A model generated the notes under the pieces. That model worked only from the letters and a program-made list of their open reading frames with translations. It searched no databases and was not told the origin of the DNA. From Eledone cirrhosa (taxonomy: Eukaryota): DNA of 64,000 nt. Shown here in pieces: positions 37,351-55,965 of this stretch; within the stretch, counting starts at the first letter, position 1; every line of letters starts with the position of its first letter. The DNA lies in NCBI GenBank assembly GCA_964016885.1, contig OZ024741.1, forward strand, positions 153,016,001-153,080,000. Direction: 5' to 3'. Both the position numbers and the translations under genes were made by a program.

Positions 37351-38520
37351 ATCATAGTTCTTTGGTAGTACACTATACAACACCGTAGCCACCTCCTCCA
37401 CACCATCATCATCAACACCTAAACCAACACACCCACCACCGCTACCACAATTATCAACACAACCACTACTTCTATTACTACTATCAGCAGAACTACTAAC
37501 ACCAGCACTGCCATACCCACTACCACCGACACCACTACCATCATCATCATCAACATCATCAACACCACCACCACCGTCATCATCAACATCATCAACACCA
37601 TCATCATCAACATCAACATCAACACCACCAACAACGCCACCATCACCACTATTACACCACTACTAACATCACCACCATCACTATAACTACTAGCACCGGA
37701 ATGACCACCACCGCCACCTATGTAATGAGCGCTTGTTCTGTGTGTGTGTGTGTGTGTGCATTAGAGTGCAGCCATGCATGATGACAATTGTGGAGGAGAG
37801 AGGGAGAGAGAGAGAGAGAGAGAGAGAGAGAGAGAGAGAGAGAGAGAGAGAGAGAGAGAGAGAGAATGAGATAGAGAAAGTGAGAGAGGGAGGGCGGTAA
37901 GACTAATGAGAGGCAGAAATGATGTGGGGAGGAGGTAAAGGTGGGGAGATTGAGAAAATGAGAGGAGGAGGAGGAGTAATGGTTGTGGTAGTGGGCGGAA
38001 GCTCATGTAATATTACTGTAGAAACATATGTTTTAGCTGAACTTTAACACAAGTGGTGGGGGGGGAGCTGTGGGGGGGGGGGGAGTTGATGAGGAGGAAC
38101 AGGGTGTTAGAATATTAAAGGTGGTGTGGAGAATGAGAGACAGGTGTAAGGCAGGTGAGAATAGGATGGGGGCGGCGTTTGTAGAGAGGTTATAAAGTAC
38201 ATTAGTTTTCTCCAAAATAACTCTGTTTGAATGTGTCTGCATGCCAGTCCGTTTGTCTGTATGTTGGTATGCATGGACGCCATGTATATACATTTATATA
38301 CTTATACACACACACACACACACACACACACACATATATATATATATATATATATATATATATATATATATATATATATGCAAAGTTTTATTTAAATTGT
38401 TGGGTTACAACGAGTAAATATTTATAACTGATATAAAAGCACTCAACAAGTATTTGGAGTATATTTACGATATTAAATAAATGGAAACTCTATCTATTTA
38501 TAAGACTGTTTATATTGTAT

Positions 38521-38580
38521 TTTGTCTGAAGAAGGCATACCATATTTTTAATATGATATCCCTGAAATATATATAATGAA
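38521..38580 (+). ncRNA. Type-I hammerhead ribozyme motif inside inverted repeat 38466-38627
   Basis: UUUGU-CUGAAGA-AGG.AUA.CAUAUU-uuu-AAUAUG.UAU.CCU-GAAA-UAUAUA-UA-AUGAA. Confidence 0.75.
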
Positions 38581-38702
38581 ATAAATATGGTTTTATAAAT
38601 ATAGTTTCCATTTATTTAATATCGTATATATATATATATATATATATATATATATATATATATATATAATATTAGTATTGGTTCTCTGAAATAGCGATGT
38701 AT

Positions 38703-39290
38703 ACATGAATGTGTGTATAGTATATTTGGCAATATCCTGTATGTTTAATTAAAAACATTTAGAAGACCATTCGCTATGAGCTTTAAAGTAGAGACTTTTT
38801 TTTTTTTTTAGTTTTACGTTCCTTTTTTTGTGATAGTTATTTTATTTTTCCAAATATAATTCATGAGTAGAGAAAAGCAATGAAGAATGACATGATGCTG
38901 AATGAAAATAAAAGCGATAAATACAAACACACACACGCCGACCACAACTAAATATGGAATGATACGTGATGGGGCTCCGCCACAGCGCCCGGCGATCAGA
39001 ATGGAGAAGGCGTTTCCCCGGAGGACAGCAAGGGGGACGCGCTGGAAAAGCCCCTCCAACTCGCGGGGCTCACACCTGCGGCTGTGACTATGTCACTTAT
39101 TCTCGGCAAAAGCAAAGAAGAGTAATCGAAACGCTAACGAGCGAGAAACAGACTGTCGATCACTCTTCTTTGCCGAGAATAAGTAAGTGACATAGTCACT
39201 ACTTTAAAACACATGGCGAATGGTCTTTTAAATGTTTTTAATTAAACATACAGTATATTGCCAAATATACTATACATACATACATACATG
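38703..39290. repeat. Fold-back element whose left arm is interrupted by a CRE-type insertion
   Basis: 38703-38796 plus 39084-39128 is the reverse complement of ~39155-39290. Confidence 0.85.
38797..39083 (-). mobile_element. CRE-clade non-LTR retrotransposon 3' fragment with poly(A) and probable TSD
   Basis: EPRELEGLFQRVPLAVLRGNAFSIL (the QR..A..RGNA C-terminal motif), a T-run at ~38797-38809, and GAGACT/GTGACT flanks. Confidence 0.75.
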
Positions 39291-39861
39291 GTGGCTGCCA
39301 ACTCGTTTTCGAGTACGGCCACTACTTTATATCCATGTAGGAGAACCCCTACCGATGCGCTGAACGAGTGTGACTTTTTAGTCCAGCCAGCGACTTGAAA
39401 ACTCTGGTACAAACACTACACTTGTGACAATTACTGACACATAATGCTGGGCCCATGGTACCATGTGACGACAAGTGCAGAGAGATCTCCAGATATAAAG
39501 CAATGCCTGTGACATGAAGCTTTTATAGTGAGCAAAGGCACTGCACAAAGCCAGTCCCACTCTCTTAACCAAGATGATATTTACCAAAAAGAAGAACAAA
39601 TCAATATCATTGGATACCATCAGGGTTGCAGGTGTTATATCAGAGTTGTCCTTCTCCTAGAATTCTGCCTTGACAAAGGCTAAGGGGTCACCTCTCCCGG
39701 TGATTTTGGATGGCCATTGACTCTTAAGAGCTCCTTTGCCCTTTGACAGGTTTTGTTTTTAGTCCTGCAGGATGTCCAAAGTCACCCTCCTCACAAAGAA
39801 ACCTTGGTGGGGTTGCCAGTTTAGTCGCCAACGACCCGACCATAAGACAGGTTGTACTGGG
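39290..39861 (-). mobile_element. Internally deleted RTE-type element (5' leader plus 3' C2H2-finger end)
   Basis: 3' end [25 protein letters not shown] plus UTR; leader CCCCTTAGCCTTTGTCAAGGC..CTAGGAGAAGGACAAC; flanked by (TACA)n. Confidence 0.7.
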
Positions 39862-53354: not shown

Positions 53355-54830
53355 ATAACTTTGATAACATTGATAGGTTTCGGCCAGTATTGGCCCAGGC
53401 CATGTCTAACTTAATAGCACCACCTGGCGAAGTCTTATAAATTAGTGTTTGAGCATCATGGCCCACTCGAGCAGAGAGTTATTGTTTAGGGAGGCATATC
53501 CGGGTGTAGGAGGCTTATCCGGGATTTCTTGAAGGAATTTATCCAAAGACTTCTTGAACTTGATGGGGTCTGTCTCTGCTTTGGTGTGTTTTGGTGTAAT
53601 GTTAAAGAGTGCAGGGCCAATTGAGGTGAAATAATTATGCCGTATTGTTGTTATGAGATGCGAGTGAGATTTTTGTCGTGGGCCTTGGGTGTACATTAAA
53701 GGTGATGCCAACATCATTTGGGCAAAGCTGATGGAATATTTTCCACATCATGCAGATAATGTAGCGCTCACGGCGACGTTGGAGAGAATAAAGATTGAGC
53801 TTTTCTAATCGACTCTAATAGTCAAGGCCTGTCATGCCATCTATCTTTTTTGTAATTGACCTTTGGGGTGCTTCAACTTTTATGATACTTTGTTTCGTGT
53901 GGGGTGACCACAGTGGACAACAGTATTCAAGGTGGGGTCGGTCAAAAGTGGAGAAGAGAAGGATAACAGTGTCCACAATTACTCCAGGTCTCTGATGTTA
54001 TTGGAAGCCACCAGAGTTTCACCCGAAGGAAGAGAGTATGGTAGTTTCAGGGCATCCTTTTTTCCAAAGTGGATTAATTCAAACTTATCCTCATTCAACA
54101 GCATATTATTCTTTTCTACCCATTGGATAACAGCCAGTAGGTCTGACTGAAGGCAAGTCCGGTCACCCATCTCATTGATGACCCTTTGGAGCTTGGAATC
54201 ATCTGCGAAGATTCTTATGTTGCTGTGCTTGATGATGTCAGTAATGTCATTAATGTAGATGATGAAAAGAAGTGGACCCAACACAGTGCCTTGTGAGACG
54301 CCACTGCAGACTTTGGCGGGCTTGATTCTACTCCTTCGACTACAACATGCTGGGTTCTGCCTGTCAGGAAACATTTGTTCCACTGTAGTAACCTTCCAGA
54401 GACACCAACATTGGATAGTTTTTTCAGTAGTATCAAGGTAGATGACATCAGTGTTGGAGCCCTCTCCTAAGGCTCTCAAAACATCGTCAAAGTGATGCAG
54501 GAGCTGCGTTAGGCAGTCCTTTCCATTACAGAACCCATGTTGGTTGGAGTTCAGCAGGCCGTTGCTTTCAAGAAAGTGGGTTATTCGTGATCTCACTACC
54601 TTCTTAAATACCTTGATAATATGAGAGGTGAGTGGGATCGGACGGTAGTTCACTGCAAGGGATTTATTTCCCTTTTTGAAGACTGGGACAACGGACTGGG
54701 ACAGAAAGTTTTCAGGAATATAGCCAGTGTCCAGTGAGTTCCTCCAAAGATTAGTAAGAGGAGATGCAAGTTGGTGTCGACACAGGGAACCTGTCGGGAT
54801 CTGCTGCTGAATTGTGTTTAATTTTGTTTA
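53355..54830 (-). mobile_element. CR1/L2-group LINE, 5'-truncated and decayed
   Basis: NYRPIPLTS, NQHGF, SGVSQGTVLGPLLF, IFADD, LYSLQRRRERY, GPALFN; 3' tail of TATCAA(A/T)GT repeats. Confidence 0.9.
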
Positions 54831-55402
54831 TTGCCGCTAAGACATCAAGGGCGCCAAACGTTATGTCTGATATAGTGTGTTGGGGATGTATATAAGCGAG
54901 TTTGAAAATAGAAATAGAAGCTTTCGCCGTATTTTTGATTAAAGAAATTTAGCCTAATAAATGGAAAAATGATGAGTATTGACGTATATATATATATATG
55001 CAGTTTAATTATTACTATATATATATATACACATATAACGTTGATTTAAAAATATATGTATGTATTAGAAGCGAATGTCTACAGAAGTGCAGCTTGAAAT
55101 GTAGAAACGATGGACGAATATCTTTGTTGAAATAGATCAAAAGATGACGAATGAGATGAAAAGTGTAAACGTGTTGCATCATCGTTGCTATGGTAACAGC
55201 AGTGGCTAAGCAATTATCTCACTGACCATTGCAGCTACTACTACTAATGTTGATAGACACAAATACATACATATATACATACATACTTACATACACACAC
55301 ACACATACATACTTACATACACACACACACACACATACATACATACATACATACATACATACATACATACAAATATATATATGTGTTATAAGTAGGTCCC
55401 GA

Positions 55403-55591
55403 GTTGAGTTGGAGGTAACCAGAGTAAATAAGGTATTCAATGCATGTGTAGAGTGAAGACAGAAGTTTATATGAAAAGGGCTTCTACGGGACAAATACTG
55501 TGTTTCATTCGTATGAAATCATCAGGAATCCTAATGATTTCATACGAATGAAACAGTACTAGTCCTGTTGAAGCCTTTTCTATATAAACTT
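55403..55591. mobile_element. Family-B fold-back with back-to-back hammerhead cores
   Basis: ..TTTCATTCGTATGAAATCATCAGGA-A-TCCTAATGATTTCATACGAATGAAACAG..; palindrome 55462-55591. Confidence 0.8.
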
Positions 55592-55595
55592 TATA

Positions 55596-55965
55596 TATGA
55601 AAAGATTCAGGACCCCGACGGCTGAGCAGCGGCCGTTTCAACAGCTAGATCCGGATCTTGCTGTCGAATCGGCCGGAGCTCAGCCGTCGGGGTCCTGAAT
55701 CGTTTCATATTACCCACTCTACTACCCCCAAAGTATCGAGTACTCTGGTAGGTTATGGTCCACCTGGTTTTTTACCACAGCCTATCTGATATATATATAT
55801 ATATATATAAAACGAACGAAGTGTGGTAAGGAACCAGGTGGACCATAACGCACCAGATTACTCAATACATAGGGTAGTAGAGTACTCAATACTTAGGGTA
55901 GTAGGTCCAGAAATAGCCGTCGAAACGGCTCGAGCTCTGCCGTCAGGGTCTTGAACTTTTCCTCT
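55596..55965. mobile_element. Family-A fold-back (55596-55710) with tail, plus a second rearranged copy (55810-55965)
   Basis: Inverted GATTCAGGACCCCGACGGCTGAGC / GCTCAGCCGTCGGGGTCCTGAATC, and the shared ..GAGTACTCTGGT..TTATGGTCCACCTGGTT tail. Confidence 0.8.

Follow-up and report, generated by a model that had tools for sequence, protein, structure and literature searches.

Fold-back insertions with hammerhead motifs in (TA)n of Eledone cirrhosa, best explained as paired 3' ends of Penelope-like elements

Penelope-like elements (PLEs) of the Hydra clade, including Hydra-1_Obim from Octopus bimaculoides, carry a single reading frame with reverse transcriptase (RT) and C-terminal GIY-YIG endonuclease and a hammerhead ribozyme near the 3' end; they target (TA)n and occur with an inverted 5'-truncated copy and a one-sided tail (PMC8557442). 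The clade is defined by RWK-like and DKT motifs in the RT, a CxCX5C linker, CxxC and CxH, and the absence of CCHH, and the supplement of PMC8557442 contains Hydra elements with (TA)n targets, among them one Octopus family. In vitro work on the Poseidon element PAc of Anolis carolinensis showed two internal RT start sites, one on either side of the tail, with cleavage and extension of both target strands, and a dimer has been predicted (PMC11167929). Here we describe ten fold-back insertions in a 64,000-nt stretch of the 3.0-Gb genome, assembled into about 30 large contigs, of the octopus Eledone cirrhosa (contig OZ024741.1, positions 153,016,001 to 153,080,000), in the following called the window. 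The Hydra-type families among them share the Hydra features listed above, and with PAc the inserts share two fixed 3' ends around a tail, an AT-rich target and a hammerhead upstream of the tail, although PAc belongs to a clade different from that of the families found here and inverted insertions are not discussed in that work, as judged by a word search.

The ten inserts are almost certainly the 3' ends of six PLE families, which we call A to F. The best explanation overall, to which we assign a probability of about 0.6, is that they are head-to-head pairs of 5'-truncated PLE 3' ends in (TA)n, made by a protein that primes twice on one RNA. The architecture of inverted 5'-truncated copy, one-sided tail and (TA)n target is already published, and the inserts are of this known type. 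What is added here are the counts of tails and arm lengths, the hairpin in the tail and the size of a young Hydra-type expansion.

All ten sites named in the original prediction are local inverted repeats that start at the positions it gave (self-BLAST E-values of 1e-12 to 1e-102, and alignments), and all lie inside or beside (TA)n or related microsatellites. The proposed check for (TA)n enrichment was positive, with (TA)4 at the 3' end in 154 of 171 sampled copies compared with 17% of random positions in the loci examined, which are also the scope of the tail-cluster, hammerhead-core and one-tail counts below. The assignment to several unrelated families holds at the DNA level, where six distinct families are found, but five of the six form one clade with a common tail hairpin. 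Family A is represented by sites 46267, 48417 and 55462, family B by 40688 and 41919, family C by 41526, family D by 47820 and 55596, family E by 53037 and family F by 38466. Every element in the window bears a one-sided tail of 54-89 nt, which the original prediction had not included: one arm ends at an inner site, the other arm continues through the tail, and (TA)n adjoins both ends. Target-site duplications are unreadable inside (TA)n. An assembly artefact was rejected, as the arms differ by up to 22%, the ends are asymmetric, and raw reads from two other runs confirm the joints of family A. These reads, searched for family A, contain strand-switch joints as well as loose ends of inverted-arm sequence. 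The individual insertions are as follows.

38379 to 38632, family F fold-back (site 38466): minus arm with tail 38379-38497, longer tail-less forward arm 38489-38626; tail hairpin 38439-38460; whole hammerhead 38521-38580; identity to the repeats of L173, an intact Hydra-type copy, 99-100%.
40688 to 41137, family B fold-back: tailed forward arm 40901-41137; tail-less inverted arm 40688-40902, with the greater 5' reach; whole hammerhead 40935-40989; tail 41048-41137 with hairpin 41052-41093; long copies (L171, L172) enter a GIY-YIG frame.
41471 to 41672, family C fold-back (site 41526): minus arm 41471-41598 with tail, plus arm 41598-41672 without; a whole core on each strand, at 41592 (minus) and 41606 (plus); tail hairpin 41499-41520; parent frame in L238, L241 and L251.
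41919 to 42200, diverged family B subfamily: arms 41919-42088; core at 42005 (plus) with mutated GAAA; tail to about 42200 with hairpin 42115-42156; no long copy of this subfamily was traced.
46215 to 46385, family A fold-back (site 46267): arms 46267-46385; whole core at 46333 (plus); minus arm with partial tail.
47820 to 48026, family D fold-back: junction within stem II, GAAA half only; tail 47950-48026 with hairpin 47955-47980; parent RT and endonuclease frames found in L179.
48420 to 48585, family A fold-back (site 48417): core at 48474 (plus) with GAAA changed to GAAG; tail 48528-48585 with hairpin 48546-48566.
53038 to 53298, family E fold-back (site 53037), with a Neptune/Nematis-type parent: stem II-GAAA-stem III half only; tail 53239-53298, without the Hydra hairpin.
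55387 to 55592, family A fold-back (site 55462): tailed minus arm with whole core at 55525 (minus); tail-less plus arm with broken core.
55596 to 55790, diverged family D fold-back: GAAA half only; tail 55711-55790 with hairpin 55716-55743.
55812 to 55963, additional family D insertion, absent from the original prediction: inverted tail joined to a tail-less forward arm.
8138 to 8372, family D insertion elsewhere in the window: inverted tail 8138-8197; forward arm with complete U3-A8 hammerhead, core 8270-8276.
45391 to 45512, plus strand, single-arm family A copy with tail; hairpin 45465-45486.
2805 to 8083, 5.3-kb insertion of another PLE family with like layout, between (TA)20 and (TA)27: tail-less inverted arm 2805-5289; one-sided 54-nt tail 8030-8083.

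The forward arm of the 5.3-kb insertion carries a 562-aa RT and GIY-YIG frame (5666-7351; Pfam RVT_1 E 6e-8, GIY-YIG E 3e-4) of a clade other than that of family F. Close to the 3' end of the insertion there is a degenerate hammerhead-like motif. At 8560-8675 the window holds an inverted family A remnant with tail.

The reading as 5'-truncated and inverted PLE products, already proposed in the original prediction, is borne out by the frames: every family is linked to an RT/GIY-YIG frame in the same genome, intact for F and partial for A, B, C, D and E. The intact F copy L173 consists of repeat, 733-aa frame and repeat, and for this family we therefore see the hammerhead-bearing repeat on both sides of the frame as pseudo-long terminal repeats. 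Long copies of B, C and D run into related frames, with the C and F proteins being 35% identical, and the link of family A passes through three loci. The RT motifs RWR and DKT are found in F, KWR and DKT in C and DKT in D; for A they are seen only in L259, whose link is uncertain. Frames of A, B, C, D and F have the CxCX5C linker and no CCHH, and CxxC and CxH are intact in F and altered in some broken copies. By these motifs the five families are assigned to the Hydra clade. The parent frames of family E (L294, L295) have a CX4CxxC linker and a GIY-YIG domain with Cys and His of the CCHH type (Pfam GIY-YIG E 4e-7, RVT_1 E 3e-4), as in Neptune and Nematis PLEs, which are marked by a CX2-5CxxC linker and a CCHH endonuclease and with which E also shares the microsatellite target; its motifs place it with one of these two types. 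Among the families' frames, the Pfam GIY-YIG match is above cut-off only for E and weak for B and A. The F frame matches no Pfam family and has no match in a sequence search of the PDB, and a relative of it has an RVT_1 match below the Pfam cut-off. Among named sequences, the parent protein is closest to one from Argonauta hians.

Compared with the Hydra elements of PMC8557442, those described here are far more abundant and younger. The octopus family reported there comprises 4 copies ending at one site, whereas we find at least 150 endonuclease copies at 98-100% identity and 23 tail clusters; the former number comes from family F, where all 150 scored matches to the endonuclease part (among 60,267 first-look candidates) fall in this range. 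Exact patterns of 21-25 letters occur genome-wide 1,722 times for one C subfamily, 5,776 times for E and 2,310 times for D, with 0 hits for reversed controls. Tails are 54-89 nt here compared with 30-40 nt there, 3' untranslated regions (UTRs) here are 1-1.5 kb, and the U3-A8 core sets family D apart. For Octopus vulgaris recent Penelope-like activity has been described, with hammerhead and Hydra unmentioned in the available part of that work (PMC13282606).

The tails of A, B, C, D and F share a predicted hairpin. It starts 4-13 nt past the inner site with an outer stem ACTC...GAGT; inward of this come a bulge of 1-2 nt and a second stem whose sequence is free. The family E tail lacks it. Searching for the outer motif upstream of (TA)n, we found 352 tails in 23 clusters of at least two, and 15 of the 23 clusters have at least 3 inner pairs (shuffled mean 1.1, maximum 6 in 2000); the outer motif had been chosen after viewing the five families. 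The putative hairpin shows compensatory changes and is common to the Hydra-type families. A like layout is visible by eye in three of five non-octopus Hydra consensi in the supplement of PMC8557442, one from coral and two from sea cucumber; the copepod consensus is unclear, and the ends of one coral consensus lay outside the comparison. The words hairpin and stem-loop do not occur in the main text of that paper, as shown by a word search. We give an even chance to the tail hairpin being a protein-binding or boundary signal of Hydra-type families.

The evidence for two priming events comes from the arms. Each family has two fixed 3' ends, 54-89 nt apart. In 174 of 190 fold-backs of families B to F, one arm is tailed and one is tail-less; one fold-back has two tails, one has none, and 14 have a cut-short arm. 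Samples drawn with patterns free of tail and junction gave one tail in 20 of 23 cases, with 0 double-tailed and 0 tail-less. Family A was omitted from the pooled count because we judge its old tails to have diverged from the young reference. Among fold-backs whose arms differ by at least 8 nt, the longer arm carries the tail in 36 cases and lacks it in 51 (p 0.13). In all six families the arms of one locus are more similar to each other than to arms of other loci; in A, D, E and F the divergence within a locus is about half of that between loci. In family D, the 29 long minus/plus pairs taken from the first 100 matches (0.2-5.4 kb apart, counted by hand) all agree at two variable core positions, for which the chance is about 0.35 each. 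Both arms of a fold-back derive from one source. In one family E fold-back (L197 7220-7520, the same place as L293), about 130 nt of DNA from about 550 bp away sits between the arms.

The simplest way to obtain one tail and two similar arms is a snap-back, in which the tail-primed cDNA copies itself. Plain snap-back is excluded, because a tail-primed cDNA cannot yield a tail-less arm longer than the tailed arm, as seen in 51 of the 87 asymmetric cases and in the window at 38466 and 40688. To save the model, later recombination between arms would have to flip the centre and homogenise the arms. In its favour, the two arms match in length to within 8 nt in 87 of 174 fold-backs, about half. Flipping should build up with age, and it does not: the tail-less arm is longer in 15 of 22 fold-backs of the youngest class (young meaning at least 96% identity to one reference copy) and in 36 of 65 older ones (Fisher p 0.33). 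Old arms are only 78-85% alike, which argues against homogenisation. We regard a snap-back with later flipping as rather improbable.

We infer two primings on one RNA from the combination of one tail, either arm being the longer, shared variants and the PAc start sites, and lean slightly towards one priming event at each tail end. The endonuclease would cut both strands of (TA)n; one cut would prime at the outer site and give the tailed arm, the other at the inner site and give the tail-less arm. Both cDNAs would extend 5'-ward, stop independently and join at their growing ends via short microhomology, and the mini-elements would be cases in which both stop early. Located 4-13 nt past the inner site in Hydra-type tails, the hairpin may act as protein-binding or boundary signal in this process. 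The hammerhead would be carried along since it lies between start and tail. The one-tail rule and the arm-length symmetry are counted here, beyond what is described in PMC11167929.

Many stops in families A, B and E fall at one start-like place and could be run-off products of priming near the RNA 5' end. In junction-free samples, 12 of 28 family A 5' ends lie within 6 nt of an initiator-like A with 1 in the next 30 nt, 13 of 29 family B ends lie at such an A followed by 0, and 8 of 28 family E ends followed by 3. The pile-ups lie ahead of the core by 6 nt in A, 124 nt in B and 42 nt in E. A TATA motif stands about 30 nt upstream of the pile-up in A and E; we take initiator and TATA in their usual consensus form. 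At the family A pile-up, 393 and 460 raw reads have inverted-arm loose ends, with (TA)n at both 3' sites, and read depth makes a several-fold step there, to which divergence of older subfamilies upstream contributes. An extra G of cap type was counted by hand in 42 of 100 cases for C and in 46 of 100 for E; control positions gave 11 of 100 and 30 of 100, which makes the excess only suggestive. As proof of a transcription start the cap-derived G was dropped, since the first counts came from biased queries. Unbiased arms continue into the parent 3' UTR in 21 of 30 cases for E and 22 of 30 for C (junction-free samples). A non-autonomous family E unit with fixed 5' end was rejected, as long copies with frame exist and these 21 arms are long. 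Drosophila Penelope has an internal promoter (PMC2377424). That short fold-backs are run-off at a transcription start within the terminal repeat seems to us a little short of an even proposition. A more tentative idea goes further: a dimer would start one cDNA at each tail end, guided by the hairpin in the Hydra clade, and the smallest fold-backs would be integrated run-off cDNAs resembling strong-stop products. If true, a single mechanism would account for the inverted repeat together with the one-sided tail and thousands of orphan animal hammerheads, and the tens of thousands of young copies in the genome make it countable.

Several points speak against the double-priming explanation. The mechanism is read from finished insertions of these families. 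The samples consist largely of best BLAST hits, the tail was part of most queries, the young class is set by identity to a single reference copy, and the frame link of family A spans nested insertions. In family A, 36 of 47 fold-backs have one tail and 11 of 47 were called tail-less; arm likeness within a locus is weak in B and C. The step in 5' ends is weak in family C (7/29 and 2/29), broad and inside stem II in D, and missing in F, and 16 of 28 E arms extend far beyond the supposed start. Earlier peaks (C 15/25, E 35/52), obtained with junction-containing queries, fell to about 30% in unbiased samples. The genome-wide drop-off of family C is spread over three consecutive positions (8%, 19%, 9%), with random matches to TA flanks contributing, and the cap-type G can be accounted for by the C of the partner arm. 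Finally, the same counts agree with a hairpin intermediate that primes itself and is cut in stagger.

This last possibility is the main rival. A free hairpin copy would prime itself, for example on an antisense template, its ends would be trimmed in stagger by the endonuclease to leave one tail, and the product would then integrate. It accounts equally for one tail, for either arm being longer and for shared variants, has been proposed for rotifer PLEs (PMC3846280), and agrees with the attribution of the tail to endonuclease resolution (PMC8557442). Some junctions are short palindromes, which favours it, but many show unpaired spacers, slippage repeats or captured local DNA instead of a priming stem. 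In addition, the tail ends are RT start sites on a cut target in vitro (PMC11167929), and the 5' pile-ups of A and E have TATA/initiator-like spacing on the sense strand. We therefore consider a free self-primed hairpin unlikely. A splice site or branch point at the junction, looked for by sequence in families A, B and E, was rejected as inconsistent across families.

The recurrence of some junctions raises another question, namely whether mini fold-backs are independent units, either retrozyme-like RNAs or DNA resembling miniature inverted-repeat transposable elements (MITEs), copied whole from master loci. Very short copies are plentiful in A, and 26 E loci share one 3-nt centre. This class of 26 loci was, however, enriched by the query, and it includes both centre orientations (12 and 13) and three variant types. 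In unbiased samples the junctions are variable, each family is continuous with PLE frames, and the ends are asymmetric, unlike terminal inverted repeats. As to MITEs, one end is tailed and lengths range from about 100 bp to more than 5 kb. The outcome that the original prediction had set against its own reading did not occur: MITE behaviour is lacking, a link to PLE frames exists, and the hammerhead core covaries. Non-LTR retrozymes (LTR, long terminal repeat) resemble the inserts in having a type I hammerhead, a relation to PLEs and a unit without open reading frame, but they are head-to-tail tandem monomers (bioRxiv 10.64898/2026.07.22.740005), whereas we find head-to-head truncated ends of coding elements, with variable junctions and continuity with PLE frames. 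Tandem monomer arrays are rare, one locus among those examined. The suggestion of retrozyme-like non-autonomous elements is not upheld, since the junction changes between copies and, in junction-free samples, the majority of copies reach the parent 3' UTR. Independent units thus appear very improbable. The single retrozyme-like arrangement noticed is a short head-to-tail array of family A ends (L336, G000:C27:2603168-2603812).

Whole or partial CUGANGA..GAAA..UH motifs had been claimed for every site. Whole cores are present at five of the ten (38526 plus, 40940 plus, 41606 plus and 41592 minus, 46333 plus, 55525 minus), point-broken cores at 41919 and 48417, and only the GAAA half at 47820, 53037 and 55596; the motif itself needs correction for families D and E, where the core is the U3-A8 variant UUGANAA. 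An Rfam scan gave no hammerhead among 133 matches at E<=1, and the motif calls therefore depend on pattern scans and pairing, not on a family model. The strict pattern scan found one full motif, and the remainder was read by hand from relaxed scans. Family by family, the arms with an intact core number 93 of 115 in A, 36 of 39 in B, 108 of 128 in C, 76 of 85 in E and 42 of 43 in F. Stem I is altered on both sides between A subfamilies, and the U3-A8 exchange occurs in D and E; a predicted type I core with three stems is thus maintained by compensatory change. Similar to the minimal PLE hammerheads of PMC4209133, these motifs are of type I, with short or palindromic stem III, many families per genome and the U3-A8 variant. 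In contrast to them, families A and D have a longer stem III and D includes a large sub-lineage with a C3-A8 mismatch. Among the first 100 D matches, counted by hand, 62 are U3-A8 and 38 are C3-A8, so that a predicted poor core did not keep a lineage from spreading. This fits the observation that PAc ribozyme mutants still insert in vitro (PMC11167929).

Opposite-strand hammerhead pairs 100-700 bp apart are known from Schistosoma (PMC4209133), and the original prediction likewise expected self-cleaving motifs to be seeded on both strands. This appears doubtful, because two whole cores occur at only one of ten sites, 41526, and folding of five window sites predicts a long duplex at each of them, not a hammerhead. 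The hammerhead motif is conserved in the parents, yet the predicted duplex probably masks it in fold-back transcripts. No junction was seen at the ribozyme cleavage site; the junctions fall 5' of the motif or within it. Hammerhead cleavage is probably not part of fold-back making.

The origin of PLE inverted repeats and of the one-sided tail has been called open (PMC3846280, PMC8557442). The counts presented here exclude the simplest model and name a testable one. The common tail hairpin is a concrete candidate RNA signal for the Hydra-type RT, and such enzymes are close kin of telomerase. Hydra-type elements, of which few copies had been described, are numerous in this cephalopod and have been active recently; they would be wrongly classed as MITEs or unknown repeats. 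Host RNA may be affected, for example through double-stranded RNA and editing. PLE double priming, a Hydra tail hairpin and octopus hammerhead fold-backs were not found in our literature search, most subscription papers and supplements being outside its coverage.

The window holds further repeats. Three copies of another (TA)n-associated family are represented by their ends (40569-40652, 45648-45800, 46140-46215), and other repeat ends adjoining (TA)n, probably of similar elements, lie at 2702-2764 and 53358-53420, and at 26044-26124 and 40505-40551. Fragments at 50256-52190 and 53420-54800 resemble, by eye, RT of long interspersed nuclear elements. A dispersed repeat of about 200 bp in many copies (9021-9240, 16023-16551, 21421-21782, 27753-27979, 35456-35855, 52256-52433) is likely a short interspersed nuclear element. 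Two satellites occupy 10762-12951 (29 bp x 75 copies) and 56923-64000 (32 bp x 220 copies).

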